From: Xylographa opegraphella
Lineage: Eukaryota
Assembly: GCA_022813865.1 (NCBI GenBank)
Contig: JALDZX010000034.1
Span: 1-64,000 of the forward strand
DNA length: 64,000 nucleotides
Direction: 5' to 3'
A model generated the notes under the pieces. It was not told the origin of the DNA. It made no database searches and was given only the letters and a program-made list of their open reading frames with translations. The number at the start of each line of letters is the position of its first letter. The first letter of the stretch is position 1. Both the position numbers and the translations under genes were made by a program. Shown piece after piece: positions 1,347 to 33,235 of this stretch.

Positions 1347-1889
1347 TCAGTAAGATTTGTCAGTATCCCGCAGACGGTCGTTTGTTGATCTTTTTACTTG
1401 CACGAGAATACATCTGGAATGCTAACCTTCAGTGTCCGGCGTGCTCAAACGAGAACAGCCAGTCATCCTGCTCGTCGTCTTGAATAGGCTCGGAAGGGTC
1501 GGGAGATCGTAGACTCGGTTTAATATATGTGACATATTGCTTGGGAACGAAGGATTGACGGCTTTGGTTTTATCTTGAGTCAACGGCAAACAATACTTTA
1601 ACTGGTTCATAAGGCATGACAAAGAGGCACAGATATATTCATCATATATAATATCATGGCGACTGATTCAGATACGCCCGCGTAAAATAGTCATTTGATA
1701 ATATCTCGAGAAGACTGCTTACGATTCATATGTACAATATGGGTAAACGAAAGATAGAAAAGAGGTTTTGTGCGAAGCAAGCCCTAGGGTTTAACGAAAA
1801 TACATTTCGAGTTCGACAGACCAAAATTATCGAGTATTATAAATTAAGCAATAGTAAAACTTTTGTATTGAAATATTTCCCTTTCCTTT

Positions 1890-3784: not shown

Positions 3785-3924
3785 TAATAAGTCTATCTGG
3801 TGGTTGGTCTTTGGTTCAGCAGCGATATGCCGCGTATCTCTATTACACATGACTGCATGACACGTATGGTAACTACGGCATTTTTCTTGTGAACCACAGA
3901 TATAACCAAAGAGCGCCTCGAGAT

Positions 3925-5849: not shown

Positions 5850-6262
5850 CTTCTCTGAAGGAGCCTCGCAATTCCTAAATGTGTGAAAAAGATCTCGGGA
5901 ATTGCCGACTTAAATTTCTCGGGCCGCTACGATGCATTCATCTTCGCTTGTCGCTTTAGCGAGTCTCACGATTTATGTCGCTGGCGTGCGAAGGACTTTG
6001 GCGCTACTGCAACATTTCTTAACCCCGATGGATTTCCTGCGAGCGTGGGAACAGCATGCTCTTTACCTCCGCATGGTGCATGACGAACCCACTCAACGCT
6101 CTGGCAGCGTAGGCTCATCTGCCTCAATCATCATGCCGTTCGATTGCGAGACGCCAGTTCCATAAATTGGCCGATGTCCCACTTCCACTCTCCCCAATTC
6201 TCCAACGCCTTCTAAACCCCAGGATCCCTTTACATAACCCTCAAAACCCCCACCAGCAAACC

Positions 6263-6904
6263 ATGCCAATCCTCGACTACATAGAGAGCAGCCTATCCCA
6301 TCACCTCTCGAACCAAAAAGGCCGGCACGCCAAACTCTTCACCAACGGCCCCGCCTTCGCCGCCTTCCCCGCGCCGACCTTCACCGTCGACTCACTAGAC
6401 TGCGGGCCCTCAGGCTCGCGGATGAGGCCCGAATACACGCAAGTGGGCGAGGACCGCTTCCCCGCGCTGACCTGGTCGGCGCTCGAGGCGGCGGCGGAGG
6501 CGGCGGCGGAGGACGAGGTGAAGCAGTATCTCGTCGTGGTGGAGGACCCGGACGCGCCGCTGCCGACGCCGGCGACGCATGCGGTGTTCTATGCGATCCC
6601 GCCCGACACCTGCGGTATCGCGGCGGGAGACATCGAGCCGGTGGTGGGGAGCGAGAGGGAGAGGAAGCTGCGGGGGGGGTTCCGGTACGGGAAGAATGTG
6701 CGAGGGACGATATATGGGGGGCCGAGGCCGTTGCTGAATCACGGGCCGCACGACTATTACTACCAGGTCGTTGCGTTGAAGGAGCCGCTCGATACCACCG
6801 GGATGAGTGCCGCTCCGACCAAGAGCGAGCTGGCGGTGGGGATTGTGGGGAAGGTGGCGGGCTGGGGGGCTTGGGTCGGGACGTTTGAGAGGAAGTGGAA
6901 GTGA
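6263..6904 (+). CDS. PEBP / YbhB-YbcL family (phosphatidylethanolamine-binding) protein
   Basis: Motifs FPALTW, YLVVVEDPDAPLP, YGGPRPLLNHGPHDYYYQVVAL. ATG at 6263; intronless and GC-rich. Confidence 0.88.
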   Translation: MPILDYIESSLSHHLSNQKGRHAKLFTNGPAFAAFPAPTFTVDSLDCGPSGSRMRPEYTQVGEDRFPALTWSALEAAAEAAAEDEVKQYLVVVEDPDAPLPTPATHAVFYAIPPDTCGIAAGDIEPVVGSERERKLRGGFRYGKNVRGTIYGGPRPLLNHGPHDYYYQVVALKEPLDTTGMSAAPTKSELAVGIVGKVAGWGAWVGTFERKWK

Positions 6905-7598
6905 AGGCCGGGAGGATGCTGGGTTGGTGACGGCTGCTTTGCTTCGCAGCGAGTGGTGCTGTGGATATGCATCGGGTCACTTCTTGTATGGTCATAGTAA
7001 TTGATGCGTACCGCACCTGTCATATGTATGCAATGGATGCATCCTACCCTTGTGACCAAGAATGAATATTCGATCGCATCTTTGTCGAGCATGTATGGAG
7101 TATGATATTCACGATCATAAGATGCATAAATGGGCGCCATCGAACTGTGGCCCAGAAAGCGAGATACAACATTATCTTAATTTATATGTGGTACGCTATA
7201 GACTATAGGACTCTCCTCGTCACTGTTTGGTTTGAATATCAGATATGACGAATATGCAACCATCGTAAACGAACTATAATTACAAGAAGCCATGGGGTTC
7301 AGCACTTGAAACCCTTTGGAATCATGTACAACGTAGTCGTTTTTCTCATACTGAAGCCTCGAGAACTTTTCTAAATAACTGCATTGGTGAAAGTCAAGAC
7401 CTTTAGCACTTATGTGCGCTCAATCCCGTCATTTGGTACCCTCTCCAAAGTTCTGACATGACACAAGCGGGAGTGGTGTTGCGACCGGATATGTCGCACT
7501 CTGGACCGCTTTGTTGGATGCGCTCGAGCTGTTGATCCATGTATGGTACCAAATACGAGGTCTTCACTGTGAGGAACACACACTCATGGAGTGCCCTC

Positions 7599-13115: not shown

Positions 13116-16100
13116 TCAGACGAGAACCCATTCGCTACCTCGCTTCACAAACTTATCCAGCATCATACCGATGTCCGCCAACACAAATCGACATATGTAA
13201 AAGCCGAAGAACTCCGCGGCGTGTCGTGTACTGAGCTCGAGGCCAACATGCGTTTGCGAGATATGCTTCAACCCTGGATCTTCGACCTGCCGCGCAATCT
13301 GATCTACACAGCGCTCGCGTTAGTGGGCATAGGATAGCATTGTAGGGAGGTATACTAACCAAGAACCTGCGCCGCATCGCAAAGCCTTGCCAGTGCAGCC
13401 ATATAGTGCGCGTGCGGGCCGATCCCTTGTATCCTTCCGGTTTCCCTTCTTACAAATCTCGCATTGCTCGAAGATGTCATGGGCAAGGAGCGCATCGTCA
13501 GCGTCTCCCTTGTGCCATCCTTCCGTGCGATGCTGTTGGTGGTGGTGGGAATGCCTGGTCCGGAAGAGTTCTTCGATCGCAATTTCCGCCATGTAGACAA
13601 GTAGGATTTGCTGCTTGTGTTCGTGCTCCTCGACGCGAGCGTTTCGTTCTCGTCGATCGTTGGAGAACCCTTGAACATGGCGATGGAGCTATGGATGCCG
13701 ACATCGCCGCCTAGTCGCTTCGCCAACACGGCTTGAACTTGGTCCAACACGAGTTCGAATGACTGCATTTCTTCCAGCACCGCATCGGCATCCAAGGTGT
13801 CGACCTTGATCAATTTGAGCAGCGCTGCAGTCAGTAAGTCACAACTCGACACTTTGTCATCCACGTTCTTGAGCTTCACATTCTTCACTCGCCAGATGTC
13901 CCGTGGTACGAACAATCTCGTAGAAATATATCCCCCGCGCGGGTTGACCATGGTGTGGTATATACATCTCATCACCCAGAATGGTCGCAGAAGGAATGAT
14001 TCGGGGCAAGGCTCCAGAGGGAGCGGGGCATTGATGGTCGAGAGGCTAGGAGTTCCAGGCTCATGAGGAGAATGTATATCACTATCGAAGAAGTGTATAC
14101 CTCCAAATGGTAACCTACTTGCCCCGAGTTTCGTGGTTGCCGGATGAGGCAAATCCGGAACAGCAGGTACTGGACCGGTGTATGCCTGCGACCCGGATGA
14201 GAATGCTCGTGAAAGTGGTGTGCTTGGCAGGTCGTCGAAGGAACTGGACGCGGTGAGGGATTGCTTGATAGACCGTAAGCTTGAGGACGAGAAGTTCTTT
14301 CGCAAGGTTCCAGGACCTGTGATGGTTCTGTTCGATATACGGGACGGGGAGTTTGGAACGGGCATCGTTTGGCTGTCACTTCCGTTGAGAACCGTCCTGC
14401 TCGAGGCAGATGTGGCAGAAGAAACAGCAGAAGCGGACTCCACTGGACTAGGACCCGGGAATGAAGCATTGACCTGACGCGTCCCGGCGTTAAGACCAAG
14501 TGGCTTGAGCATCATGTTGGAAGCACTCTCCTGTGAATCAGCGACCAATGACGCTGACTTTGGAGGTTCGGTGACGCCCGAATCAAACATTTCGGAAGGC
14601 AAGATCAAAGAAGGCTGGGTTCTCGGCGCAGTCATACCGGGGGGAAGTTTAACACCTGTATCGATCTTTAGCTGTTTCGCTCTCAAGACAGAGAGTCTCC
14701 GCTCGCGAACGCTAGGGCTTCGACTGATGGCGAGTACTGGTGGTGTAAGAGCGGCGACCGGTGGACGCGGTGTCGGTTCCGAACCTACAAGTGCGCGAGG
14801 CGCAGGAGGGAGAGCACCGGATGGAGGAGGATGAAGTGGTGGAGGAGGAGCTTTCGACAAAATCTGAGTAGGTAATTCTGGTAACGGTGAAGCCTCCGTA
14901 ACAGTAGACAACGTTGTCCTGGCAGTATTTGGAATTGATCCAATCGAGCTCCCCCATGTACGTCCGGAGAATCCGCTCGAATCCGATTGGCGAGGTAAAG
15001 CAGATTTGGTCTGCATTTCATACTCAGTGTCATCCAAAATATAGCCTTGGGTCATTTCCTCGAGTAGCCTTTCTTCTTCCTCTGCTTCATCATCATCGTA
15101 ATCGGCATCCATGGCCTCACTGCTGTTCGTCGATATAGACCTTTCGATGCGGCGGTTCATTTCCTGTTCCTGAGCTACAGAGACTGCTATTTTATCTTCA
15201 GTTTCCCTGGTACGATCCTTCGCTACTTCCGTGTTTCTGCTAATATCCGAGACGTTTTCAGGATCCCGAAGCAATGAGTGTACTTCGTGTGGAGGATCGA
15301 AAAGGCTCTCTGCATCTGGTTCAAACCCATCATCATAGGCTGCCTCGACAGCGGCATCAAGCGCGGCATCAAATTCGGCTTCTGTCGCACCACTCGGTGC
15401 CCGAATTCGTTTACGCCGCAAGCCTACAGATGACGATCTTGAGTGGATAGAAGACGCAGAGGAAGCGCCCGATTCGTCTATTGTATCAAGCCAAGATGTT
15501 GATTCTGCAGTTTCTTGTCTCATATGTTGCGATCGTGTAGTTCCAGGCGCTGGAAGCTTTGCTGACCTGAAGATGGCTGGATCGTCTTGTTCAAGCAGGC
15601 TAGGCGAGATGGGTCGTCGTGGTGATAGGGGCGGAGGCATATATTCCTTTTCCATTGGCGTCGCGAGGCTTAGTAAATTGGTCTCAGGGATAGTTCCGTG
15701 TGGATTTTCTATAGACCACGGATCCAGAGGCGTGAAGTGTTCTTGCATATTGGCAGTTGGAGTCAATCCTCCATCGTCCTCGAGAGACGAAGGCATAAGA
15801 GATTGCCTGCGTGGGGGGTGCTGTTCTCTTTGTAGTTCTGGCGACAATCTTCGAGTCGAAAACCGAGAATCATCTTCTTGTGCCGCAGTTGTGGATTGAA
15901 GAACGGCTGAATCTTCATCCTCAGATTCCGTGATTGGCGAGAATGGGTCTTGACTTCTGATACTATTGCTATGTCGCATTGGGACATCTGGCAATGCTTT
16001 ATCGTTTACGTGAAACAATTCAAGTTCGCTGGTCTGAAGCTCTGCAACTCTGTTCATGTACGTATTTCGCTGGAAATGGTGGGTCAACAAATTTTTTCAA

Positions 16101-17279
16101 CACATCTTCTCAACACCAGACGAAATGACTTACAATGGCTTCTAACTTTCTACGGTCATCCTCACCAGAACTACGAATCATGACTTGTTGCAAGAGGTCA
16201 CAAGCATCATCATAAGCTGCCACTGCTCCCTCGAAATTTGCTGCATGATCCAGTAGCACTGCATGATTCGCCTTCTGAAGAGCCTTTGAAAGCATTGTCT
16301 TCTGTGAAGGCGCTTTTCGACGTCGTCTTCTGTCGTCTTGGCTTGGTATAGAAGATGTCGAGCTCTCACCTTCTGTACCTCCGCTACTCTTGTGTGCATG
16401 TTCATGGGGTTTGGAGTGACCTGCTTTCGATGGCTGAGAACGCGGTTTATATTGAGCATTTGACGACTCTCGATGGTCCCAAGAAGGATTCACAACGGAC
16501 TCGGCAGGAGCATGAGAGGGTTTTGGGCCTTCGGGTCGTCGGTGCCTTGAGGGCGAGCTTGCAGAGGAAGAGATCACCGGTGTTTTGTTTCCATCATTTC
16601 TTTGCCTCGGCGGTGACCTATTTGTCCATTTGTCCCCGAAGTAGTCACCTGAGCCAGGAGCGAGAAGGTCTGCCGTTGCAGGAGTAGTGAGAGGCCCAGT
16701 TGAAGGTGTATTCGCAGATTGCACGGCGTGCGACAATGTAGACAGAGTTACGGCAGATGCAAAACGAGTAGACTGGCGGGTAGCGCCTGTGTTCTGCGGA
16801 GCCTTCTGGGGACTGCCTGTGGGAGACGACTGTGACTTCTTCAAAAATCCTTTACTTGACGTGGGCGACTGTTGATTCCCGAAGGGTGCCAGAGAGCCGA
16901 ATGACCCAGACAACCTCCGTGCAAAACTATTCCTCCGCTTATGGGTGTTTACGGACGACTTGCTCGACACCGTAGATTGTGACCATCTATTCAAATTCCC
17001 CATACCTTCAGAGATTCCACCCAAGCTATTCGACCTGCTGTGGCTCGCGGCTGGTCGATGGGAAGCTTCCGGTGACAGCGGCCGTGTGGATGAATTCACG
17101 TTTGTGATCTTAGCCACTGGACTTCGAGATCTCATCGTCGATCCCGCAGGCCGAATGCCAGTACGGTTTGAAATGGTGGCGGCCCGTTGTACAAAAGCCC
17201 CGACAGTGGGTGCCTGCGCCGGCACGGGCTTTGTGGACTGCCGCTGTGGTGCTGACGGCTTCGCCAGCACAGAAGCCAT
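13116..17279 (-). CDS. MIT-domain-containing protein (fungal family); 3 exons, 5' end uncertain
   Basis: MIT motif QKTMLSKALQKANHAVLLDHAANFEGAVAAYDDACDLL..EAI|RNTY across an intron. Long low-complexity middle. C-terminus LRPFWVMRCIYHTMVNPRGGYISTRLFVPRDIW...LELSTRHAAEFFGFYICRFVLAD..DKFVKRGSEWVLV*. Confidence 0.85.
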
Positions 17280-19229
17280 GGCTTTTGAATCTATAGTCCT
17301 AGATGCCTGATTTTTCCTGCAGTCTACTGGCCCGGCGGATCAAGGCGAAGACGGCTGCATGTGTACTGTCCTAGACGAGGGATCATACCACGAGACCGGG
17401 CATCGTCGCGACTGGCGACACGCTTGGCTGCTTGGTTTTGCCAAATTCGATTCACCATCCGATCTCTGATGTTCCTGTCCTTCTAGCCACACACTCTCGT
17501 CTCGAACTCTCCGAACGATGTTCCAGCTCGGGTATTGCTATTCTTCGTCGCTGACGCCAGGGGCTTCTTGACGGGAGTCGTCGAGAGAGCTAGCGATCGC
17601 GACAATCGAACGACCGAATCGTTATCGTCGGGTGGAGAGAGATGATGCGGCCGAGCGCTCAGGGGAGTCGGATCGGGGGATGGATGAGGCTGGTGAGGGA
17701 GAGCAAGGAGGTTGCTGGTGCTGGTGCTGTTCGGGATCGAGTCAGGCCAGTGCTCCTTGGCTGCCGCGGCGGGTCTGAGAGTCTTAGCGAATGGCGTTGC
17801 GCGCAGGGGGGTGGTTGTTGTTCGTGTGGTATGCACGAGGAGGGAACACCTACATGGTAATGCGCCCGAGGAGAGAGGTAGTCTCGGGAACTCAAGGCTG
17901 TTTTAGGGAGCATGCGTAGACAGTACGGAGTGGACTGCGACTGCTCTGCTGACAGGAGCAAACCCTACGTTACGATGAAGCGTCAAGAACAGAAGGAAGG
18001 CGGCATGGAGGCTCAACCGTCCAAGGATTGACTTGCGCAATGGAGTAAAATACCTATGCAACTTACAGCCACTCGGCTAGGGTAGTGCGGTACGCTTGCA
18101 GCAGCCGGGGCGTAATATTACACAAGTGCCTCAACTGAGTCAGCAGTCACGAGGCAAGCGCCCAGAAAATTTCGGTCATCTTTTCTTCGGCAACGACTAC
18201 GCGAAGAGGCTGGCTCCTTCTAACTCGTCCAGCAAGATACCTGTGTTTGCTGTCTGGCTGACCTCAGGCCGGTGTTCTCGTAAAGTTTGCTACTCTTACC
18301 AACCACCAACCTCCAATTCCGCTTGAGGGCTATGGGGGCGGAGGCATTTCACGCAAAGATTTTCTTGTCCGACCACCGTCGAGTGAGATCCTCCGAGCTT
18401 GAGCGCTCATAAATATTAACTTGGTTCCCAATAAAACCACTATGAAGACACAAGCCGATTGGGAGACGAATGGATAGTATGAGGGTCTGTGGCGTCAATC
18501 CAACCGTACCTCAGTCCAACGTGCGAAGTCCATCCCTCCAAAATCCTAGACTGCTGGTATCGTGTATCTCTGTGGATCAGCGCTAGAGCGACGGCGCAGT
18601 TCTATTGATCTGACAAGGCGATGGTGTCTGCCAATTGAATGGGCCAGATACCAGATGAATTTCACTCATTGTTGACAGGAGCACTGAACACATGATGATC
18701 GCATGTTGGCATGCGTCGTACCTAATTTTTGTCCTTACTTACGCCCATCTCACGTTGCACAGGTTCGATCAATGCATGTAAGGAATCTGGTTTCACAGTT
18801 TTGTTCTGCATATTCCGAAGCTGCTGCTATGAAACTGCGAGATCCAACGTGTGATTTGCGACCTCGAGGCAGATTCGACATCCTCATGTGCACACGCACA
18901 TCAAGAAAACAGAAGTCTTCCTGAGCATCCCGGCAAGCATTATGATCTCAAAACACCGTACTGTGTGAGGCCTCCACGCTTACGTGAGTACATGAATGAC
19001 AAGAACCTTCGACTGATAACTGTTGTACAAGTTGAACCACCCCCATATTCCCATAAGCCAACCAGATGGTGAAGGCTTCCCACGACCTGGACAGTATGAC
19101 AATGCTCATTTATCTGCTGAACATTATCCTTAATCTAGCATCGCAAACGTACCAAAGACGTCCGTACTGCAGGACGGCCCAAGGATCAGCTGAAATAGCG
19201 TCCATCTATGAGGAGTGTCCGCTCAAGGG

Positions 19230-21552
19230 TCACACGTTCTTGCCACAGCCACCAGCAAATTCATGGTCAATCTGCTCCAAGACTTCTTGAACTTCGTCCC
19301 CGCCCCGTGGCAGACCGCGTACCAACGTCCTCTTCTTTCTTGCCGACCGCTCTGACGACCTAGGAATGGGGGTTGTATCGTAATCATCGAGCTTACGCTT
19401 GGCTACCCTGGCAGAGTCTGCTCTTTGCCGCACTGCCTTCTTGTCGACCGAATCTTCTTTACTGGATAGCTGCCTGCGACGGAGGAGGCTTCCATAACCT
19501 CCTTGGACGGAAGTCGTCTGGACGGGAGTCGTCTGCACTGGGATCGTTTGCACTGCGGTCTTCTGGGATTGGATGCTATTGGGTGAGCAAGTGGGTCCAC
19601 ATTGGCGATAAAGGTCTCTCGTGAGAAAGTTATCCGACCTTTTCGTGGAATATGACATCTCTTGGCTGATGTTGGCGTCGATATCGTATGCTTGGTGATA
19701 AGCATATGGAAAGATGATGATCATTTCATTCTGCTCCTGCACAACTTGTCTATAGACTACGCCGAAAGCTTCCAGGGTAGGTCCAGGCACGTAGAGCCTT
19801 TTATGGTCCAAGAATTTGTCACATTGCGGTGGAAAGTGCGGTCTGGTCCCTTGTTCAGTCTCAACTAGGTCTGGCGAGGTCACCATATGCATTATCTCTT
19901 CGAATTTGACATGCTCGAAAGGCTTCACAACCGTCCAAACCTTTGCAGCCCCCTGCTGCTGTCAGTACCATACTCTATTGGCGTTGTAAGGATGACTATA
20001 CCTTGTGAAGATAACTTATCGAGTACGCCGCGCTCTTGTTTATACGCATACCACACACAACTCCTTCGCTTTGTGCAACGTGTATCTGCGCCGAATCGGT
20101 GCTTGGGGCTGTGGACAGGCGCTCTTTCGGAGTCTCATTGGGAAGTTTAGACAACTCAACAGTGTTCAATCCCAAAGCATAGCGTATGCGGGCCATATCT
20201 GGATGTCTTCTTAGCTCCGCCGTTGGGAAGGAAACGCACTTTGCTTACTGAACTCGTTAGCTGTTTTCATTGTGTAGGATGACGAACTCTGTGCCATTTG
20301 CATTCTAGCAAGAAACTCCCGTTCTTTGCGGTCGAAATCAAACCCGCTTTTCACAGAAGCTGATGCATGGAGTTGAATACGACTACTAGTATACTTTACA
20401 TTTTTTTGCCCTTTAGAGTTCACCTCATACATGTCAATGTCACCGTGATTGGTGACTTTCTTCATGCTCTTGGAATGCCTCGTGCATAGCAATTGATCTG
20501 GATTTAGGGCTTCAGTTGGTCGGCGAGTCCCACCCGAAAGACGAGGCAGGATTATTTTCACGACTCCACAATCACGTCCTGCAGCTTCCTCTAGCAACTC
20601 TAGGTAGAGTGGGAATTTTCGAGCGAAATCAGAGAACGCGAGATCGTTGTATTTGAAGTTGAGAACGCAAACGCGCTGCTCCACGCTATAGATACCATGG
20701 TGCTCTAGTTCTGTTAAAGCTGGAACCTGGCTGACTTCATACTCGTGGCCGTGGGAACTGGGGATCCCGTATTTCGTCAACGCCAACAAGCCTTTTGTCT
20801 CCTCTGGTGAAGGTGTGTAATCAGTGGTACTTTCGTGGCAAGTTGTTTAGGTAGCAGTCTTACGTTTTCTTCTAATCCAATCGTCCCACGCCTGACGTTT
20901 CTCGGTCTCACGCGCTGAGCTCTCTTGCATAATAGGACTGGGATCCTGCCTTTTTGGGATCCTTGAGGGCGTGACCTTAGTCACGTACAAGTCCAGACAC
21001 GTATCAGAACACGAGGTGTCGTCGTTGTCAACGAAATCCTCCTTTCTCTGCTCAGGTGCTTCGTACACGTATGTATCGTCGTCTAAATTGTCCCAACTGC
21101 CTTCTACTTCATCGCGGTCTTTTTTCGGTGATGGGAGCTCAGCATTGGCTATCTCTGCAAGTTTTTTCGTCGTTGCACGGGTTCTGCGTGCCGGAAGTCC
21201 CTGGAATAGATCTTCCTGGAATTCACGCGTGTCGATGATATTCGCGTCTGAGAGTGTTGAGGTTTGCAATGAAGCCTCTTGTAGCAAAGATATTGCGTCC
21301 AATTCCTGCATGGAATCTTCGTTATTATCGGGTTCCGTCAGAAGCTCGCTCTCCTCTGTCTGAGTGTCATGTGGAGCTTCATGACCGACTCGGATGGGTA
21401 GGGAAGTTGTTGAAGCGGGTGAACTCTGAGCTTGGTGGCTCACGCTTTTGGTCATGCTGACGCGTTACCGTTAGCAGCGTCTCGAGTTGAAATTAGATGA
21501 TTTACTTGGCGTTCGCGTCTTCGTCCAGACTTGTCACGTCTCCAGGCTTCAT
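19230..21552 (-). CDS. Divergent JmjN+JmjC (KDM4/Rph1-like) protein, predicted catalytically inactive; multi-exon, 5' end uncertain
   Basis: Spliced product has JmjN-like FSDF..YLELLEEAAGRDCGVVKIILP, then YSISYLHK|GAAKVWTVVKP, CDKFLDHK, TLEAFGV, VVQEQNEMIIIFPYAYHQ and RQCGPTC. Introns near 21505-21457, 20863-20804, ~20250-20199 and ~20001-19953 all have GT..AG ends and keep the frame. Confidence 0.82.
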
Positions 21553-22741
21553 GACAGCTTGCTTGAGCACAGCTACCGTCTCAGCAACGATTGTACGTTA
21601 TCAGCACCTCCTGGCTGTGGACCCAAAGGGTATGATACGGAAGCTAGAAGCAAATACAGAAATCAGCAGAGAGATCAGCACTTGACTGCCCTATCTGGTG
21701 GTGGATGCGAACTGGATGCGGGAGCACGAATAAGTAAACAACCACCAGGCTACGCTACTGCGCACAACACTCGAAGGTGTGCCGAGCTTCTGGAAGGAAA
21801 GTAGCAGCAGCCGGAACAAGCGTGCCGGCCTGCAACACAGTCGTGTGAAGGAAGCACTTCCCGTTCGATCAACACTTCTCGCCTTTCGACAGTCTCATTC
21901 GTGCGTCGAGCCTCGTGACATGATACTCCGCTGGGTTACAACAGGGTTGGAGGGGAAGCTTGAAGATATGAATGATCTCATGGCTTCCATGCTGGGGATA
22001 CTTGCAGAGGCGATTACTGTTCTCCTGCTGGCGTAGGAGTTTTTGGCTGCTGGACGTATCGCACGTCTGGGGTTTGTGCTTGGCTCTGCTATGCTGGTCA
22101 AAGGGGTCCAGTCATTGCAGGCCTATGTCCTACTACTTGCTCTTGCTTGGGGGATTATTGTAACAAGTATCAGTTCGGGTACTATCACGTAGGTGTTGTA
22201 TAGGTCTAAGATATATCTGACAAGGATCTGTTCCGGCATGAGTGTTATGGGTCCGGAGAGACTACTTGCCGTTATCGATTGGGGATTGACAACCGTGATG
22301 AAGATGAAGAATTGTCTCTTGATGGATGACATATGTGTATACTGCAGAATGGGATTATGGATATAGCTTGTGTTCATCAACAGCATCCCATTCCTGTGGC
22401 CATGATATCCTACACGATTAACACGTAGTCTGGTCGAGAAGCCTCGAGACGTCACAAAGATCACTCATCGCACAGATTATGGTTCGTTCGTGTATCGAAT
22501 CGAGATGAAAAAGGAAATCAAGTTCGCTTGGATGTGCCATGCACATCCGGGGTATAATCTCAACTCACTCATCAACCCAATGCACCCACAGATGCAAAAC
22601 CCCACGCAGAAGCATCTATAAATGCAAAAAACCCGCATGCAACAAATGCAAAGCCCAGAACATTCCTACGCGCCCACATAAACCCTAGCAACTTATCCAC
22701 CTCCTCGTCAGCCTGTCTCCCATCTCCCCCACCCACAGCAT

Positions 22742-25700
22742 TCACGTGCTCGGCCCCAGCCTCAGAGTGGCATAATCTTGTGCCAACTGCTCCGGTGTCT
22801 GCAACTCGCGTTTGACGACCTGGAAGTCGCTGGTCTGATCGTCCAGGTACAGTTTAAGTCCCGTACGGTCTTCGTAGATGTTCACGTCGATGGTCTTGGT
22901 TGCCAGGAAATAGTACACCTTGATGACATTGGCACTTTGGCCGAATCTCCGAGCGCGGCCGATGGCTTGCTCGTAGCTTTGGTTGAAGGCGTGCTGGCTC
23001 TCCTCGTGGAGTGGCGAGATGAACATGACGTGGTTGGCGCTGGTGAGGTTGCTGGGTCATTGTTAGCACTTCTCTTAGCAAAACGTGAAGAAGGTGACTG
23101 ACTGTCCAGCGGCGCATGCACTGCCTACGTTGAGCATCAAGACCGTCACCCTGGGTTGTCCCCTCTTGTCTTTCGAGCCGTCCTTGAATTCCTGCAACAT
23201 CTTGTCCTCTCGCTTGGCATCCTTCGACTCGCCGGTAATCGTGAAGAATGTTATATTGCTTGCCTGAAATGCCTCTGACAGAGTTGCCATCATGTCGACA
23301 AATTGAACAAACAGCAGAATCTGTCCATTCTGATCCCTGATCTGTTTGATCACTCCGATGATATCCTCAATTTTCTTGCCGTAGTACACGGGACCTTTGA
23401 CATTGGTCTCCCCGGGTATCAAGTCCCCGGCATGGTTGACGTTGTAGTCCAGAGCCCCGGCGGTACATCCCTGCACTCCACAGACAGACCCTCTAATACT
23501 GTCTCTTTTGAGACATGTCTGACATCGGATGTGGCCACATTGACCAAGAAGATGGAGTTCCGTAATATGGCGGACGGGAGGATGCGCACAGTGCTGCTTG
23601 AAATGACCGGAGGATGCCCATTGCCGAATGTGATGGAGGCTGAGAAAGAAGCGCAGCATTCTTTTCCTAGCAACATACTCTGTAGTCATCTTGTGCAACT
23701 GCTCCTTCTGGTCACGTAACGCCTTCACAGCTTTCTCGATTTCTTTCTTTCCAACGACTTTCTTTGACTCGGGCAACTTACGTGCTGCTTGATTCGCAGT
23801 TTTTATCAGAGCCAGCATTGTGGCTGTGGCCTCTCCGTCGCCGTATGCATTGTTATTAACATACACTTTCCATGCTGCGTAGTGAGTGTCATGGTCACCA
23901 AGACTGTGCTTTTGGAATTCTGCAGTCTGTAAAGCTGCTCGAATGGCAATTAGTTGCATTCGAACTTGGGATTTACGAGCCTCTACTATCTCGGCACTGG
24001 CGTTGAACTCGTTCCTGGGTTCCTCACATGACGTGAGGGCCGAGCCTTCCTTCGGCATGAGAGGTCGAGTGAACATCCTGTTCCTAAGTTTATTACGTGA
24101 CGTTATTCGTGATCGAGAGCAGCTTTTCAACAGAGCTTCTTCCGAGGATTGACTGGAAGTGATCTCCTTGAATAGGCGCCTTACGTGGTCATTGTCGACG
24201 CTTACTCCGCTTCCAGTGCGTAGTTGCATTTCTTGCCCATAAAGCCGAACTTGTAACTCGATATACTGTGCTCGCTCCGATGAAGAAAGAATGCACTGTT
24301 TGTGGATATGTTGAGTTTCTGGCAGAACGACCACAGGCTCATTCTACAACAACGTCAGTCATTTGTGACTAGAAGAACCAATTGATACCCACCTGACGGG
24401 CAAAGATATCCAGGAATTTTTGTGCGTGGGCATGTTGGTCCTCATGCCAGCCTTGTGATCGATCCTGACATAGGCTTCTAAAGCTCTCGGCAGCTATTCG
24501 CGGTTAGAACATCGTACTTGGACATAGATCGTCGCCCTTACCTGTTCGGACGTTTCCCACCGATCTAGCATTCTGGCTCTTCCAGTTATCTCCAGCGACA
24601 TCGTCGGCTCCAAGAATGACACCGATGAGTGTAGCGAGTGCCTTGACATCCGCGAAGCTATCTATCGCCGGTGTGCCAGACAATATCCACCGGGAGGAAG
24701 CGCAAAGGGAGCGCAGGAAATCACATTCCTTCGGAGATGCATAGGTATACTCGTCTACCACGATTCGGCGATAATGGAACATCTGGAAAAGAGGTCCTTT
24801 TAACCCTGAAAGATTCTTTGCGTTCTCCAAGTTGAATGGATCATCTTTCAGCCCGCTTCGTGACTTTGTGACGGTATCCTTTGCTGAAGAGCGTGCGTTA
24901 CCGAAATCTGGCCGATGCTTTTGATAGGCTGCGCCCTTGTACCGCTTCGAAGGAATTCGGCGTTCCAAGTTTGGGTCAGATTGAGCGATAGCCAATTCCT
25001 CGTTCAACTTATGTTGAAATCCCGACGGAAAGGGGCTGGCCATGAGAGATTCCATGTTCTTTTCAATTCGCTCTTTGGCGTTTGCCAGCCATACTGCATA
25101 TGCGCGACTCTGTATTGAGGGTGGAGGATCAGGCAGAGACGCAAAGCGGGCGGTTCGCTCCAGAAGAGCATCGTTTGTAAAGATGGTGTAGGCGACAATG
25201 ATAATATCGGCTTTAATGAAATCGTCAATGGTATATTTCGTCAGTTCCGGCTTGCTCCTAATCAACAGAACAGAGTAGTCAGATGTCAAGAACTTCTTGA
25301 TTTCACCTTGCCATTGCGTCGTGAGTAAAAATGGTGTAACAACGAGTGTAGCCTTAAGTGAGATGCGATTCTTTGCAGTCAGCACAGCCCTTGTCCGAGT
25401 TTTGTCGATGAGTGCCAACGTCGTGATTGTTTTGCCGTACCCAACTTTATCTGCAAGGAGACCACCTCGAGCTACACAGGCTCTAGTTGCTCGTGCCTGA
25501 GCACGCCACCCGAGGTATGGTAGACAAGCCTCTTCGATCTCTTCTTCTTGAAACTGGATGATAGAGTCTGTTTCTTGCTTGAGCATCCACCAAAGGGAAC
25601 ATCCTTGTTCATAACGAAGACGCGCGTTATTTTGACGGAATATGTATTGCTCTTGGGGGTCGGACTTGTTGCTAGGAATGGTGAAGCTGGGCATTTCTGC

Positions 25701-28700
25701 AGTCTTCGAGAAGTTGTACTTAGTGTCAAGTCTCCATTGAGCCACGACCGGTTGCGGCGACTCAGAAAATTTAGACACAACTCGATGAACCAACGCTGGG
25801 ATGTTGAGACTGATCCGTAGCTCACTGACTACCTCGTTATCATGTTTGACAAAGGTGCATATCGGCTGTGGCCGAGCCTTGATGGCTTTTTCATATTGTA
25901 TAGCTTCAAGAGGTTCTTCGTAGGGATCGACCATGAGAGTTTGATTCTGCTTAGCCTTTCCCCTAGACTTCTTCGAAGATAACTCTGAAGCTTTCCAGCT
26001 GATAGTAGGAGTAGAAGGCGCGCAGCGCTGACAGACTGCTTGGCACTCGTGCCTCGGGGTTAAAGAGGCCTGCCAAGATGAAGAGAAACCCTCAAGATGA
26101 CGAACTCGTTCAGTTAACCATGTTGATGATGCAAAGATAATGCGCTCATTTGTATGATCGACCAACTTCCATTCCACCATAGAGACGTCAGGTGCTGCTC
26201 GGCAGGACATAAAAGTAATAGGAGGGGCCATACAATCCCTTGCCGCACCAATTTCGTGGGCAGCTTCGTTGGAAAGTACTGAAGAGGTTGCACCGCTCTC
26301 ACGTACAACGAGCAGACTGCCATCAGAGTCAACCCAGTATCCGTCGGCAGAACATTCAACTATCATCGCTGGAGGGTTTACGTCCTCTGGAGAAGTCGGA
26401 GATGGTAGAGGCCATGTTTTTGGGCGCCATTTCCTATCTATCCTTGCATCTGTTCCACGATTCTCACCGTAGTTCAGTCTGCGGTGGTTTGAAGCAAACA
26501 CGAATGTATCGAAGCCAGGCTCTCCAACTCGTTTTGGATCAAGGAAGAGATATTTTTGATTGTTTTCAGCAGTGATGCGCTTATGCAAGCAGCCAGTAGC
26601 CGTGCCGCAGTCCGGAAGGAAATCATATCGACCAGCGATGTCGACACCCCACTTCTGCAGTAGTTGTTCGTTCTCCGTCTCAACTATCCAAGATGAGGGC
26701 ACTGTTGATGATGAAGTGGTATAACGATCCATCAAACCAAGCCGCGATTCCCACGATTTCACTCGTTCTCCTGCACCGCTCAACTTGATTAGGAATCTCA
26801 ATGTCGCTGGCAAGCGTACCTGCCATGTTCCGGACGTAAGACTCCGACCATCTGTTTTCATACGTGCGATAGGAGCCTCCAAGAGCTTACGAAGTTTTGA
26901 GTTGCCAGGAAGTTCGGGATCAGCTTTTGCATACAGAAACCACTCTGGCTGAGAATTCGCTACCTCTAGCTCCAGTCTCGAGCATCTGCCTTCATACAAG
27001 AACTTCCAAATATCTGCCCGCCTTGACGAGTGGAAATAGTATTCATCTAGTAGTGCCTGATGGACAGCGAGATAATATTCGTCCCAGCTTTCAAGTGTGC
27101 CTTCGAAGGTGATGTGTGCATCAAGTAAAGTAACATCGAGTTCCTGGGTCAGGACAAGTCTCATCGGAAGTGCTTTTCTCATCAATTCAGAGAATTCGTT
27201 AGGTTGGATACGTGGATTATATACTGGGGTGTGTGGGTAGTTATGCTTGGGAATACCGGCGCATTTTCGGCAAGCTGTGTGAGAGCACTTTGTGCAAATG
27301 CGAATCTCAGATTTCGTGGTAGTGTCTTGTCCTTCGCAGACACAACGCCGAGCACTGAGACTGGCCATTTGACACAATTGGCTGACAGGGACTTCCTCTT
27401 CAGGACCGAAGTCGATCGGCATCTCAACCTGAAGGTAATCATCGTTTGGAAGCCCGTCATACAGCTGCTTTGTTGTGGCTCGGTCATCCACTTCCGATGG
27501 AACTGTCGGGATCGCATGGTGTGCTACAATAAGCGCACTGAGTATTGCCGCTCCGACCACGGTGGATGTCATCGCATTCCCTGCCAGATCCAGTAACTGG
27601 GCCGAGGTCTCGCTGGTGAGGTGTAGCTTGTCCACGGAGATTCCTTGCAGCGCGAGTGCCTCGGCGCCAACGATTGGCCCACCACGAGTCGTAGAGAATG
27701 GCATACCACTTGGTGTTACACATCCTGTCACTCCCCAGGCACCGTGGTTCATCCGGTCAATGTTTTGCGAAACGTCAGGATAACGAGCTTTGTAACCAGG
27801 GTCATAACCAAGAGAGGCTGCCTTCAGGTAATACAATTCGAAGAAATCCTTGATGCGATTCACCTGGTGTTTCATCCACTTGCCATTGCCATAATCAACC
27901 ATCTTCGACGGTCCGTTCTCAACCCAGTTTGTGAACGGTCTGCCGGTTCCCAGCTTATGTTCTTCCCGGTACTGAAGATGTCGAAGCTGGCACTTGGCCC
28001 ATTCGAAGGTTTTGTGGTCACTGCTTGAAGTGGCTTTGTTGATCTCGAAGGTCGCTCGATGGAGACGGGGATCAAGCTCATCGAAGAGGAACGCATCAAC
28101 AGGGGAGCTGGCCGGCCGCTCGAACTGTTTTACAACCTCGCACCACTTCCGAACTGCGACATTCGCCGTGGCTCCCAACGTTGTTTCGAGATCTATACAA
28201 AGCATATAGAACCGATTTCGGGTGTGGGGGATGTAAAAGTTCTTGGTATCGAGCTTGATGGCCTCCGCTGCATACCCAATCCGATTCCACTCCTCTTCGA
28301 CATCGGCCCAGGGCGCACCACAGATGTTCTCGAGAATGACGAGAGGTGGTCGATACTTGCCTGCATATGAGAGAATGGCGAACAAAGTGTCACCCGACTC
28401 GCCTCGCATGATGTTGTTGTACCCTGCAATGGTCTTCATAATCGTGGCCATTGCAGGTATCTTCAATGCTTTGGCGGCTATGTCATCACGGGTGACACCT
28501 TTGCCTCCTTTCCCTTTTGCAGGCGTGGTACGACCACCTGTGCGAGTGGACTTCTGCACGGGCTTGTTGGCGTCGGCTTCAGCGGCTTCGGCGGCTTCTC
28601 TCTTCATTGTCCCATCGAGTAAGCGCTGCCTTCGGCTCAGCTTGGAGAAGTCGACGCAAGCGAACCCAGCCACAAGCAAGTCCACTGCACCTCGGCCGGG

Positions 28701-29192
28701 TATGGAGGTTAGAGCTCCATATGCCGTACTTCTATAGCGGTGTCAGCTGTCTTCTTGAGATGTAATATAGTCGTGACTTACGCCACGTCATTCACGGCCA
28801 TTTCCCGGATGTCCCTGAAGATGATGTCGGTGTGGAAGTTCCGCTCGATGTATGCCTGCTTGAAGGCCACGATCTCGGCACTGAAGACGTGGTGGAAGCT
28901 GAAGCGGTACCCGCTTGCCTTAAGGGCTACGAAAGCATCAGTACTGTGTGGAGAGGATGAGAAGAACGCACTTACCATCCTGGACCATCTGAAGGGCCAG
29001 GATCGGGCTTTCGGTGCCGGAGCACATTGTCGCAACCTTGAGCCGGTGCGATCCTAGATGCACGAGGGCATCGCTGAACCCTGTTTCCAGGGCTTTGCCG
29101 GTGAGAGCGGCAAAGATGTCCGCGATCTCGTGCATCGGTCGCAGCTCTTGGTTGATGAAGCCCGAAGGCCCTTCAGCCGCACCATCGTCCAT
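22742..29192 (-). CDS. DNMT5: DNMT5: C5-cytosine DNA methyltransferase fused to SNF2 ATPase and RING-like finger; multi-exon
   Basis: MTase motifs: VATMCSGTESP (I), FSAEIVAFKQAYIERNF, LVAGFACVDFS (IV, catalytic Cys), VILENI (VI), YIPHTRNRFY (VIII), LAGNAM (X). SNF2 motifs: GGLLADKVGYGKT, IVVDEYTY, WILSGTP. RING-like CGHIRCQTC..CGVQGC. Helicase-C: LLFVQF, NLTNANHV, QAIGRARRFGQ. Confidence 0.93.
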
Positions 29193-29610
29193 GGTGGTCT
29201 GCTTTGAAGTAGGCGTTAGCGTTGACGAAATCGTAACCCCGCAGTAAGTGTTATCACAAGATGATGCTCCAAGGAAGGGGATTTTCCGGACGATGAGTCA
29301 GGATGAAATGATGTCGAGTGAGACTATTTGCAAAACCCACAGGTTATGCTCTTCGTCGAGTGCAAGGTGGAAGAGGGGAAGGTGAAGTTGAAGAGGGTGA
29401 GCTTGATGGTGGAGGGGAAGGAAGGTGGAGGCAAAGGTGAAGTGGAAGCAGGTGATGTTTGAAGATGGCCGAGGTGAAGAGAGAGCAGTGAAGAAACCGA
29501 AGGAAGTCGGGGCAGTGAATACGTACGTCCCGAGAGGCGACTCCCACGAGCCGGTCGCGGCACGAAGCGAAGGCTGGAATCTAGTCAGTACGACTAGAAT
29601 GTTCCTGATA

Positions 29611-29760
29611 AGAAGAGCGAGCTGTGAGAAGAGCGAGCTGTGAGAAGAGCGAGCTGTGAGAAGAGCGAGCTGTGAGAAGAGCGAGCTGTGAGAAGAGCGA
29701 GCTGTGAGAAGAGCGAGCTGTGAGAAGAGCGAGCTGTGAGAAGAGCGAGCTGTGAGAAGA
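29611..29760. repeat. Perfect minisatellite (AGAAGAGCGAGCTGTG) x9 plus partial copy
   Basis: Nine identical 16-bp units at 29611-29754, then AGAAGA; ~420 bp upstream of the DNMT5 ATG. Confidence 0.97.
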
Positions 29761-29808
29761 GAGATGTGGGGAGAGATGAAGTTGTGATCGGGGTGCAGAG
29801 GAGAGAGC

Positions 29809-29850
<42 letters not shown>
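29809..29850. repeat. Compound microsatellite (GT)n(GA)n
   Basis: Directly visible dinucleotide runs. Confidence 0.95.
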
Positions 29851-29853
<3 letters not shown>

Positions 29854-31299
29854 GTGAGATGTGATAAAAGTGCTAGTGTTTGTGCGGGAGGTCCGTGCTT
29901 ACAGGCCTAGTGACAGCCCAGCTGGGAGCTGGTTGCACCTTGCGTGCTGTATCATGGTCAGTGATGCTAATAGTTGACAATTCGCTACAGCATAATCAGG
30001 TACCTCCGCTCCTTGCCACGACGGCTTCCACGACCCGCCATCCTCAGCTTTTCGATTATCTGTATCAAAGCATGAGCATCGAGTCTCGCGTTCACCGAAC
30101 TGTACCAGCTCAAGGCATAGAAGACCTACATATATGTATATATAAGTATATATATATATATACTTATATATGTCGAAAAGAAAGAAAAAGGACAACGCCG
30201 GAGGAACACTAGCCAGTAGTTAGCAAGAGAACAACGCATATTGTCATGGCGATGATGTTGACGGAGATACTCAGGACATCACAGGTATCAGGGGCTGCGT
30301 GTATGCTGCGAAGATGATCTGAAGAAGTACTCTTGACTTGCGAATGGGGCATCGGAATAACGTGAGCGCAAGATGAGTGGAACAAAAACAAGCCGGCCAT
30401 AACACCGAAGCAAAGAGAGAGAGTCGGACGGCTTACCCAAAGAAAAGACACGGCCAAGATGTGCATCATATATACCAGGCGAGAAGGCGATCTCGAAGAC
30501 TCGAAGCCGCCGGCGTGAAGAACTGTCGTGCAGGGATACGCGGGCGCCAAACCGTTCTTGGTCTACGGCGAAATAGTTCCCGGAGAAATGACGTATGCGC
30601 ATGCTCGAGGCCGACACGCGTATATTCAGGAACAAGAAGAAGGAGGTCGAGAGATAGAGAAAGCTCTCATCGTAATAGTGGGAAGTAGAAGAGAAGAGTT
30701 GAGGCGCAGGATGCGAGACATGTGCGGTACTCAGAGCAGTATAGGGACCTCCATCGTTGATCCATATGCTTCAGAGTTCCTTTCTTCGGTGTTGAGCAAT
30801 CGATGCCAGGATATAGGTGTCCGAACACAACAAGAAGTACGAGGCCGAAAGACAGAGGCATCTCTCGTCGTACTCGAGGAAGGAGAATGGGGACGAGACG
30901 TGTGTCATAGCTGAAGCAGTAATGTGACCTTCGTCGGTGATCTATACGGTTCAGCGCTCCGTTTTTTGGTGTTGTGCAAGCAAGACCGGGATGCGGATAT
31001 CGAGAAAGAACAAGGCGTATAAGGTCGAAGTATGGAGACGTGTTTCATCGTATCCGAGAAAGGTGCATGGGTACCAGACGTGTATGATAGCTAAAACAGT
31101 AACGTGACCCACAACGATCATCCATGCGTCCAAATCACTGCTCCCAGTGGTTGTGTGGGCTTTGAGCTATAGTGTTGGTATGCGTCAAGCTATGTGATGT
31201 AGAAGAATTGGCTTGTGGTCTGCGGGAGATATGGGTTCGGCGGAACGAGGTCGTTCTTTCCACCGTGTCCATGCAGCTTCAGACGAGCGGCGACCCTCG

Positions 31300-32000
31300 G
31301 TGTCCATCAGAGCTGGATGATTGCACGAATGCTCCTTTCGTTGTCGCCCAGGTGTAAGAATGGAGATGGTCGATGAGGTTGTCCATAAGTGGAGAGATGT
31401 ATGAATGGAGAGAAGTCTGTTACGAGCCGACTTGCCCACTCCGCTTCAAGGAGTTGGCCGCTTGTGGACTGTAAGAGGAATGTATTCTGTGGAGCGAGGT
31501 TGTCCGTTACTCCCGGTGCGGCTCTGGACGAGCTACAATCGTCGATGCCAGTCAGAGTATGGTATGACTGCTTCCTTTGCTCTGGTCAAGGTGTAAGAAC
31601 GAAAACTTTCGAGGAGGATAAATTGAAGTAGCGAGAAGTTTGAATGGAGAAAAGTCTGCGTGGAGAGAAGTATGAGAGAAGACATGTATGAGAGGAGACA
31701 TGTATGAGTGGAGAGAGAAGTCTGCTACTAGCCGACGCGCCGCCTCCGTTCTAAGGAGTTGACCCCTTGTGGCCTGTGAGAGAAGTGTGTTCTGCGAAGC
31801 AAGGCTGTCTGTCACTCCGGGTATCTATGCGGCTTCGAAAGAGCTACGATTCTCAATGCCGATCGAGTATGGTATGGACGCTGCTCTTGTGCTGGTCCAG
31901 GTGTAAGATTGGAGACCTTTGAGGAGGATGACTTGAAGTGACGAGAAGTGTGTCACTGTTCGACGTGCAGACTTTGTTCTAAGGAGCTGGCCTCTCGATG
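31300..32000. repeat. Diverged tandem repeat, ~240-300-bp unit (2 full + 2 partial copies)
   Basis: 31407-31640 and 31711-31950 align end to end (gagagaagtctg..agccgac..aaggagttg..cttgtgg..gagctac..gagtatggtatg..aggtgtaaga..gaggaggat..ttgaagt..gagaagt). Partial matches at ~31345-31395 and ~31975-31995. Confidence 0.75.
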
Positions 32001-33235
32001 AGGGATGACCAACAGTCCCAAGTCCGGTTTGTGTAAGAGCAACAGTCGAAAAGCAGCCCCGTGTTAGTTAAACGTCGGTAGTGATTGCGGGTTTAGACTC
32101 TTTTCCACGATCACTGCTGGAAAGGAGGCCAATCCTGTGGTTCTCGCACAAGCAGTTGCAAGCACCGAGGTGATCTTAGGTGTTGTTTGCTTCTACGGTC
32201 GGGGTCTGTACTCCTCGAATTTTCTCTCTGGCTGAACGATGAGACTGCTGAAGCTCTGAATGATGAGAGTTAGGTTTTGCGGAGCCACACTGTGGTTGTT
32301 CAGGCCTCGGCCTCCGAGGATGATGATGAGAGGCTTTATACTCTCTTTGAGGGGACTCGGGTTGATGACTGGTTCTTTACTGACCTTGAAAGCAGTCGAC
32401 GTTTTAACTCTGTGAACTGGAAAGAAGGAGTGGCGTGTGCTCAGATTCCCATCTGCAGAGCTTCCGTGCTGTGATGTGGATGGACGGTCAAGCATTATGA
32501 AGATGAAGTTGGATTGTCTTGCGGTGTGATCACAGTGCGAGGGTGAAGGACACCTGGGGAAGGTGAAGAACGTCAGGGAAAGACGTGAAGGCCGAGGAAC
32601 AACCTGAGCATCCCCCCTCGGTTCTGCCGCACTAAAACATGAAGACGTTTGCGGCAGTCCCACTATGACTGGCATCACAGGATGGCTTGAATACATTGCG
32701 GCTGAGCAGACTCTCCCTACGAGCGTGGCTTGCTTCCAAAGCGGCACATTCGATCATTCTTGCCCCCTAGGCTATGCTACTTATTCTCACGATTCGCTTT
32801 CCGCAACCCATAGCTGGACGACCTCACGAAACAGGGTCGCTAGATCATAGTCGCAACGATACTGCTTCCTATGATCTGCATTACGGACGTATTTTACCGA
32901 GTGCTCAAACAAAACGATGGAGGCAACGTTGCTGGCTACGCTGAACGTTACGTATAAAGGGCCCACCACGGATCGAAACGGCACTACGTTGAAGTGTTTG
33001 ACTGCAGTCGGCCACAAGTCATGTAATTTTGACTATCTGACATATCCATTACCCATCTACCACACAACGTCGACTCCTTTCTGTTTGCCTCGTCCCAATC
33101 TGGGATAACCCTAAACGCTAGTTAAGCGCGTTTGCTTGTAAACGCCATACACGCGAGGAATCCGGTCAAGAGACTGCGATATGAATTGTCCAGTCTTCGA
33201 GTGTAACACAGCTGGTCAAGAATCCGTCAATCACC

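Follow-up and report, generated by a model that had tools for sequence, protein, structure and literature searches.

Many fungi and protists rely on DNMT5 as their main enzyme for maintenance CpG methylation, and, outside Cryptococcus, nothing to our knowledge is known of what targets it to heterochromatin or confines it there. A DNMT5 gene with a KDM4-like JmjN/JmjC gene directly beside it occurs in a 64,000-nucleotide (nt) stretch of DNA from Xylographa opegraphella, a lichen-forming fungus (Lecanoromycetes, Ostropomycetidae, Baeomycetales; contig JALDZX010000034.1, positions 1 to 64,000), which we refer to as the window. The initial annotation, made from the letters of the window, proposed that the two genes form a linked chromatin module and named chance adjacency as the alternative. 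Is the adjacency an accident of one genome, or does it reveal a partner of DNMT5? Gene order normally scrambles across Pezizomycotina classes, and the survival of this pair across them names a concrete candidate DNMT5 partner.

A two-gene arrangement kept across Pezizomycotina classes

Both genes lie on the minus strand in a head-to-tail arrangement, with DNMT5 (22742-29192) upstream of the JmjC gene (19230-21552). The distance from the DNMT5 stop to the JmjC start is 1,189 bp (21553-22741), in agreement with the co-orientation and the gap of about 1.2 kb initially described, and the terminator of DNMT5 and the promoter of JmjC are expected within this spacer. We read gene order in relatives from NCBI locus tags and from equal contig sizes in the records of both genes. 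Consecutive tags for JmjC and DNMT5, given here in that order, were observed in X. opegraphella (MMC26_005003/005004), X. soralifera (MMC17_005717/005716), X. pallens (MMC27_004189/004188), and X. bjoerkii (MMC18_002640/002641), as well as in Candelina mexicana (M1836_000291/000292), Pycnora praestabilis (M1827_004574/004575), and Sarea resinae (M1819_000951/000950). A single tag lies between the two genes of Candelaria pacifica (M1812_000001/000003). Equal sizes placed both genes on one contig in X. trunciseda (210,666 bp), Xylona heveae (970,080 bp), Peziza echinospora (2,508,640 bp), and Geopyxis carbonaria (923,545 bp). The 13 named species with both positions thus comprise seven with consecutive tags, one with one tag between, four with both genes on the same contig, and one, considered below, with the genes on different contigs. 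Schaereria, Toensbergia, Acarospora, Lecanora helva, Letrouitia, Seirophora, Candelina submexicana, and Kalaharituber fall outside this count, their DNMT5 positions not being among the matches listed (120 of 728). Six further JmjC-DNMT5 protein pairs have equal longest contigs (19,644; 18,536; 43,297; 73,731; 93,823; and 67,180 bp).

According to a taxonomy look-up, the carriers span Lecanoromycetes, Candelariomycetes, Sareomycetes, and Xylonomycetes, and we take Peziza, Geopyxis, Rhizina, and Kalaharituber to be Pezizomycetes. A profile search over 1.84 billion representatives returned 37 clusters of the JmjC family at E<=1e-30, compared to about 1e-10 for canonical KDM4. A scan of metagenome contigs yielded 21 loci, 13 of which (L001-L013) contain a family member. 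Eight of these 13 are too short upstream to judge, and in all five with at least 7 kb upstream (L006, L007, L010, L012, and L013, from three lichen-metagenome taxa), DNMT5 lies upstream on the same strand. DNMT5 occupies 547-6951 in L010, with JmjC from 8443, and 767-7339 in both L012 and L013, with JmjC from 8375; the spacers of the window, L010, and L012/L013 measure about 1.0-1.5 kb. DNMT5 ends at 2806 in L006 and 3528 in L007, with JmjC from about 8263-9266. The two open reading frames (ORFs) found in the spacer of this last taxon (L006 2806-9266, L007 3528-9266) encode 188 and 161 amino acids (aa) and have no Pfam match. Three other contigs of the same taxon, L002, L004, and L005, end 3.1-5.3 kb upstream of JmjC, and these ends within the spacer suggest that a repeat has inserted there.

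Comparison of the whole window to all loci using tblastx gave matches confined to the DNMT5 and JmjC segments. The flanks differ, with a DEAD helicase in L007 and a P450 in both L010 and L012, none of which is matched by the window. Collectively, these data show that the two-gene arrangement is old, with the genes strictly adjacent in Lecanoromycetes, Candelariomycetes, and Sareomycetes and on the same contig in Xylonomycetes and Pezizomycetes, and that it has been kept while its downstream neighbors change. The linkage recurs in several Pezizomycotina classes by tags, shared contigs, and DNA, so the objection that relatives lack it fails. Crosstalk between JmjC proteins and DNA methylation is already known in general. 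A literature search, with subscription papers outside its coverage, found no published account of a JmjC gene linked to DNMT5, and the pair points to an undescribed DNMT5 partner.

Fold, active site, and ancestry of the JmjC protein

What kind of protein accompanies DNMT5? The JmjC gene has five exons on the minus strand (21552-21506, 21456-20864, 20803-20249, 20198-20002, and 19952-19230), and its frame stays open over 704 codons across four canonical in-frame introns. The spliced 704-aa product is identical at 704/704 positions to P0008 (MMC26_005003), which confirms the JmjN/JmjC gene initially placed at 19230 to about 21550, the JmjN part being recognized by structure alignment only. Pfam matched JmjC in the window protein (E 2.9e-14) and did not detect JmjN at E<=0.1. 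Across the five Xylographa proteins, Pfam at E<=0.1 gave JmjC and two sub-threshold chance matches; PHD, Tudor, a zinc-finger tail, and zf-4CXXC_R1 were not found in the window protein or its four orthologues. A SUI1 match at the C-terminus was dismissed as chance, since it fell below the cut-off, with E values of 0.0018 (exon) and 0.02 (protein), and appeared in one of five orthologues.

Searching solved structures with a profile built from the five Xylographa proteins (alignment A1) gave KDM4A-D as the best matches, with E 2.5e-11 for the C-terminal half of the barrel. We built an AlphaFold2 model with a 52-row alignment, in which the core is confident (predicted local distance difference test, pLDDT, mostly 85-97 over residues 260-590). 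The folded core covers residues ~196-597, and the N-terminal ~190 and C-terminal ~100 aa are predicted to be disordered. Foldseek searches with this model returned KDM4A, C, or D cores for all of the first 40-odd chains (E ~1e-14, TM 0.6-0.69 by target). VIA-align superposed residues 255-587 on KDM4A 11-308 with Z 24.8 and a root-mean-square deviation of 3.1 A over 274 aligned residues, a range that spans the JmjN segment and the zinc site. A long helix at residues 196-221 (W..W...K; window ~20780-20920), absent from canonical KDM4, is also confidently predicted (pLDDT ~95). Within the otherwise disordered N-terminal region, a short motif, F-[EQ]-[ED]-x(3-7)-T-R-x(5)-L-x(2)-I (P0008 residues ~93-120, window ~21190-21275), is conserved from Xylona to Xylographa. 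A second N-terminal motif, LPRxxxxxDPNAxGxxGV, is present in members with an intact active site and not in Xylographa or Schaereria.

The iron site is degenerate. Exon 4 (20002-20198) encodes G-M-R-I-N-K-S at residues 448-454 in place of the canonical KDM4 W-H-x-E-D, so that H-x-E reads R450-I-N452, and this loss is common to all five Xylographa species. Exon 5 (19230-19952) encodes the C-terminal half of the JmjC barrel, including the second His, H550 (FPYAYHQAY), which is kept in the window protein and is Cys in X. pallens, and the zinc-site residues C508, H514, C582, and C586; a low-complexity tail follows. C508, H514, and C582, with the motifs around them, occur in at least 90% of the 52 alignment rows and C586 is aligned in the window protein, giving a putative structural zinc site (Cys-His-Cys-Cys). 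GAAKVW aligns to KDM4 GAPKQW/GEPKTW, with the Lys after the YSxNYLH strand retained, and this aligned Lys binds 2-oxoglutarate in KDM4. The Asn of YSINYLH is Ser in the window protein. By fold and residue comparison, the window protein is KDM4-type and, we predict, catalytically dead, as initially claimed; demethylase activity on trimethylated lysine 9 or 36 of histone H3 (H3K9me3/H3K36me3) is predicted to be absent from it and possible in intact members.

Exon 4 also encodes a degenerate form of the Y-x-Y stretch. The P-Y-L-Y of canonical KDM4 (P-Y-F-Y in intact relatives) is A-Q-I-H in the window protein, with both tyrosines replaced, by Q and H, and the stretch reads V/A-F-H or similar in other dead members. 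The Y-x-Y tyrosines of KDM4A are methyl-lysine pocket residues. If this role applies, the protein is less likely to read methyl-lysine by way of its former pocket, which weakens the reader half of the initial suggestion that the protein is a stand-alone methyl-lysine reader or boundary factor.

To place the family, we inferred a maximum-likelihood tree from 60 rows and 189 columns of the JmjC core, using a quick search with support from the Shimodaira-Hasegawa-like approximate likelihood ratio test (SH-aLRT) only. All 50 family rows fall into one group (SH-aLRT 97), which is separated from nine canonical KDM4 rows (99). All 29 rows without an iron ligand form one clade (support 89), which includes Xylographa, Schaereria, Lecanora, Letrouitia, Seirophora, and the Toensbergia cluster (P0139). 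The 21 intact rows comprise Xylona, Sarea, Pycnora, Candelaria, two Candelina, six Pezizomycete-type rows, and a nine-row clade that includes the Acarospora cluster (P0292). Alignment A5, in which 47 family rows cover the site, has 16 intact and 31 dead members, and a separate check found Pezizomycete-type rows intact in 5/5 cases. Among the three taxa checked by DNA, the site is intact in two (L010, of the P0289 type, and L012) and dead in one (L006/L007, P0295 type). The window protein carries the clade traits, namely the LRxALxCxDPxLxxxxGN insertion and the AAYSxNYxHxGAP and GPNIxE motifs. The branch that joins canonical KDM4 to the DNMT5-linked clade bears a JmjC protein of Cirrosporium novae-zelandiae (P0220, M1834_009020) whose H-x-E is intact.

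Within the five Xylographa species, the JmjC core is far better conserved than the tails. The conservation of zinc ligands, strand motifs, and core in dead members indicates a maintained pseudoenzyme rather than a pseudogene. These comparisons show a clade that appears to have been catalytically competent ancestrally and to have lost its Fe(II) ligands in one clade comprising all named non-Acarospora Lecanoromycetes, with the KDM4 fold, zinc site, and linkage kept; given the quick-tree support, a single loss is the simplest reading and is not proven. The window protein is thus a putative derived pseudoenzyme of an ancestrally active DNMT5-linked enzyme. A dead JmjC protein as the nature of the DNMT5 partner, as first put forward, does not hold for the family, which is intact in Pezizomycetes, Xylona, Sarea, Candelariales, and the Acarospora-containing clade. 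These two natural states, an apparently active KDM4-like enzyme and a pseudoenzyme that keeps fold and linkage, can be compared directly.

How does the family differ from known KDM4 proteins? Human KDM4A-D (the KDM4/JMJD2 group), yeast Rph1, and A. nidulans KdmA have the same JmjN, JmjC, and zinc-site core fold, and intact members of the DNMT5-linked family keep H-x-E...H and the aligned Lys. However, the DNMT5-linked proteins form a separate long-stem clade, placed beside KDM4 by the tree, in which the active site is preceded by an insertion of some 11-15 residues specific to the family (LRxALxCxDPxLxxxxGN) and which has the extra N-terminal helix. The window member further differs in having R-x-N for H-x-E, in its linkage to DNMT5, and in giving no match for a PHD, Tudor, or zinc-finger tail. 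Look-alikes of the Xylona protein in the ESM Atlas were generic JmjC/JmjN or KDM4 clusters only. The six fungal JmjC groups described in PMC9676040 (KDM4, KDM5, DMM-1, JMJD6, KDM2/Epe1, and KDM6B), in the part of that scheme consulted, do not separate the DNMT5-linked clade, which adds a JmjC group not split there from KDM4.

DNMT5 architecture and the chromodomain

The DNMT5 gene, spliced by coordinates, has six exons on the minus strand (29192-28976, 28926-28782, 28731-24542, 24493-24393, 24343-23103, and 23051-22742, stop included), separated by five introns, each 48-51 nt long. Its 2067-aa product is identical to P0013 (MMC26_005004 of X. opegraphella), which bears out the initial call of DNMT5 at 22742-29192 on the minus strand. 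The layout consists of a C5-methyltransferase (MTase) domain, a Cys-rich middle region, an SNF2 ATPase with a RING insert, and Helicase_C. Pfam detected DNA_methylase (E 7.5e-12), SNF2-rel_dom (E 2e-17), and Helicase_C (E 5.2e-9), with a weak zf-RING_5 match on exon 5. The sole PDB sequence match at E<=1e-10 was C. neoformans DNMT5 7R76 (E 2.2e-300, residues 230-2032). In an alignment of 32 orthologues, the catalytic Cys of motif IV (C146), E255 and N256 (ENV), GYGKT (Walker A), and DEYT (DE-x-x) are invariant, and T55, C57, S58, G59, T60, E61, and S62 of motif I are nearly so. Judged by its sequence, the window gene is an intact SNF2-fused C5-MTase gene, and ATP-dependent maintenance CpG methylation is predicted for its product.

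A basic insertion of about 40-70 aa interrupts the MTase domain of the Xylographa and Trapelia enzymes. In the window protein, it is a Lys/Ala/Gly-rich stretch of ~70 aa between motif IV (CVDFS) and GESGDT (residues ~155-230, window ~28130-28370), and Trapelia coarctata has a shorter insertion of ~40 aa at the same site. The Pfam MTase match falls into two stretches solely in these insertion-bearing species.

The initial annotation stressed the lack of a chromodomain, with the ORF starting about 55 aa before motif I and an upstream stretch free of ATG. These points stand: motif I (ATMCSGTES) begins at residue 53, with ~52 aa ahead of it, a stop 35 codons upstream of the start closes the reading frame, and no ATG occurs in the 762 nt upstream of the start (29193-29954, minus strand), which we regard as the leader/promoter region. 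A chromodomain hidden in an upstream exon was ruled out, as 25 minus-strand ORFs of at least 35 aa at 29216-32067 contain no Chromo match at E<=1 and the 762 nt lack an ATG. Directly ahead of the DNMT5 ATG is a CTAAC...CAG signal that may be the acceptor of an intron in the 5' untranslated region. The leader/promoter also contains a perfect 16-bp tandem repeat in 9.4 copies (29611-29761; unit AGAAGAGCGAGCTGTG, plus strand) and a (GA)14 run at 29823-29850.

Is the missing chromodomain a peculiarity of this protein? Pfam did not find Chromo in the window DNMT5 or, at E<=0.01, in any of the 14 fungal DNMT5 orthologues scanned, which include it (four Xylographa, Trapelia, Pleopsidium, Lobaria, Xylona, Aspergillus, Mycena, Saitoella, Tuber, Sarcosagium, and Piccolia), and precomputed Pfam annotation shows none among the DNMT5 matches listed (120 of 728). 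Consistent with this, Aspergillus DNMT5 is described in the relevant part of PMC9676040 as MTase, SNF2, and Helicase_C, and excerpts of two other sources document the chromodomain for Cryptococcus DNMT5 (PMC13297926; 10.1101/149385). The window enzyme shares the MTase-SNF2 architecture of C. neoformans Dnmt5 (7R76-7R78, 7T02), including motif I, the catalytic Cys, ENV, Walker A, and DE-x-x, but differs in its lack of an N-terminal chromodomain, its ~52 residues before motif I, and its basic MTase insertion. As far as domain searches indicate, the chromodomain-less form is the usual ascomycete architecture, and the N-terminal chromodomain is a trait of the Cryptococcus enzyme rather than of the family. 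The description of the window protein as chromodomain-less is therefore accurate, but not as a special trait, since 0/14 orthologues carry Chromo, and this ordinary absence is no evidence that the neighboring gene replaces a chromodomain.

Readings of the pairing and other features of the window

What might hold the two genes together? We tentatively favor functional coupling, which we consider close to an even prospect though not quite that, with the JmjC protein as a putative anti-silencing or boundary factor of the DNMT5 pathway that would limit DNMT5-marked heterochromatin. The ancestral form would remove H3K9me3, and possibly H3K36me3, by the usual KDM4 chemistry, and such demethylation would confine the sites where maintenance CpG methylation and heterochromatin reinforce each other, by analogy with the way plant IBM1 counters CMT3 and Neurospora DMM-1 counters DIM-2. 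In Xylographa and related fungi, the protein would work without catalysis, through its presence on chromatin or on partner proteins, a mode that has been suggested for S. pombe Epe1. We propose that regulation, inheritance, and loss act on the pair as a whole and that this preserves the linkage, since either gene on its own, the enzyme or its limiter, would be a disadvantage or of no use.

In a stronger version, which we regard as doubtful, the JmjC protein would be an obligate, dedicated cofactor of ascomycete DNMT5, and the cassette would couple maintenance CpG methylation to the state of the H3 tail, first by demethylation and later, for most Lecanoromycetes, by means of a pseudoenzyme bound to DNMT5 or to chromatin. 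If true, it would explain what targets or restrains a DNMT5 that has no chromodomain, as well as the joint inheritance and loss of the genes. Direct binding of the JmjC protein to DNMT5 is possible; a complex prediction for JmjC residues 185-600 with one arbitrary DNMT5 segment (1-580), with the proteins' own alignments unused and controls not folded, scored 0.21 compared to a mark of 0.34.

Known systems resemble the pair in part. Epe1 is a JmjC anti-silencing factor without demonstrated demethylase activity, and S. pombe has neither DNA methylation nor DNMT5. Its largely non-catalytic limiting of heterochromatin is the model we propose for dead members, but Epe1 is KDM2-like and lacks JmjN, whereas the window protein is KDM4-like by sequence, structure, and tree and has an aligned JmjN-equivalent segment. 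The JmjC domains of animal JARID2 and of yeast Gis1 and Ecm5 also lack iron ligands and are kept as subunits or regulators; these belong to other JmjC subfamilies, and none is known to be linked to a DNA methyltransferase gene. Epe1 and KDM2 are treated as one fungal JmjC group in the scheme given in PMC9676040. Neurospora DMM-1 and Arabidopsis IBM1 are JmjC proteins tied to the DNA methylation pathway and H3K9 methylation in the portion of 10.1101/2023.01.30.526367 that covers them. DMM-1 and IBM1 differ from the window protein in that both fall outside the KDM4 type and bear a diverged Cys-rich domain, zf-4CXXC_R1. They work with DIM-2 or CMT3, and neither is reported to be encoded next to the methylase gene.

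Several observations weigh against functional coupling, and many of them would fit neutral ancestral synteny, in which the two genes were neighbors in the Pezizomycotina ancestor and have not yet been separated, and the JmjC protein has a role independent of DNMT5. The pair is known here from its genes, and the histone substrates of intact members are deduced from the KDM4 fold only. Sharing of a contig in Xylona, Peziza, and Geopyxis is read from equal sizes, which do not give the gene spacing, and in Rhizina undulata the genes are on separate small contigs of 12,252 and 21,893 bp (tags 009928 and 007381). The L006/L007 taxon tolerates an insertion of ~5 kb, with ~4.7-5.7 kb and two ORFs between DNMT5 and JmjC. 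The flank comparison in relatives covered the side downstream of the pair, with the far side of DNMT5 outside it. No family member from DNMT5-bearing Eurotiomycetes or Basidiomycota, nor any from Dothideomycetes, is named among the matches listed, so DNMT5 seems able to work without this partner. The text of PMC12543289 places Dnmt5 "in mostly conserved loci", naming no neighbor in that passage, and part of the linkage may thus reflect a generally stable neighborhood. However, table S18 of the same source gives the DNMT5 orthogroup a mean neighbor retention of just 0.129 (median 0.09) within +/-10 genes across 1,239 fungal genomes. Adjacency, order, and orientation nevertheless hold in three classes by tags or DNA and in all five informative loci, and the downstream flanks have nothing in common with the window. 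We consider neutral synteny unlikely, though worth serious weight; were it correct, the finding would shrink to an unusually stable neighborhood and one more JmjC pseudoenzyme.

The remaining alternatives appear weaker. The dead JmjC protein might be a physical subunit of DNMT5 that reads H3 methyl-lysine and recruits or activates the chromodomain-less enzyme in trans, as the chromodomain does in Cryptococcus. Linkage that outlasts the loss of catalysis, the retained fold and zinc site, and possible docking elements in the short N-terminal motif and the 196-221 helix would suit such a subunit, but the chromodomain is missing from every ascomycete and mushroom DNMT5 scanned, including lineages that showed no family member, the partner is an intact enzyme in its ancestral form, and the pocket stretch is Q-I-H or, in other dead members, V/A-F-H or similar; we judge this role quite unlikely. 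Co-regulation alone, in which DNMT5 transcription controls the downstream JmjC promoter or both genes share one chromatin domain while their proteins act outside a common pathway, would fit the constant head-to-tail order and the spacer of about 1.0-1.5 kb in the window, L010, and L012/L013. Yet the pair is kept across the ~5-kb spacer of L006/L007, and selection for co-regulation usually implies shared function, which makes this improbable. Decay of the Xylographa gene into a pseudogene is very improbable: its iron ligands are gone and it evolves faster than DNMT5 (53-70% compared to 72-80% identity to X. opegraphella within the genus), but its frame is open across all four introns, intact orthologues with a well-conserved core exist in 5/5 Xylographa species, zinc ligands and fold motifs persist in the 31 dead members, which come from many taxa, and the model core is confidently folded.

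Around the pair, the window encodes a MIT-domain gene, ADH, PEBP, RPL44, DnaJ, FtsJ, and OST3. The MIT-domain gene, downstream of JmjC (13358-17339, minus strand), consists of two long ORFs of 913 and 409 aa, with the MIT domain at its N-terminal end as the sole Pfam match. Window genes show no CpG depletion, with observed/expected ratios of 0.87-1.11. A block of 17% G+C at positions 1-500 has a TpA/ApT ratio of 1.10 and a (CpA+TpG)/(ApC+GpT) ratio of 0.77, and it is possibly a relic of a repeat or of a process like repeat-induced point mutation, and as such a candidate methylation target.

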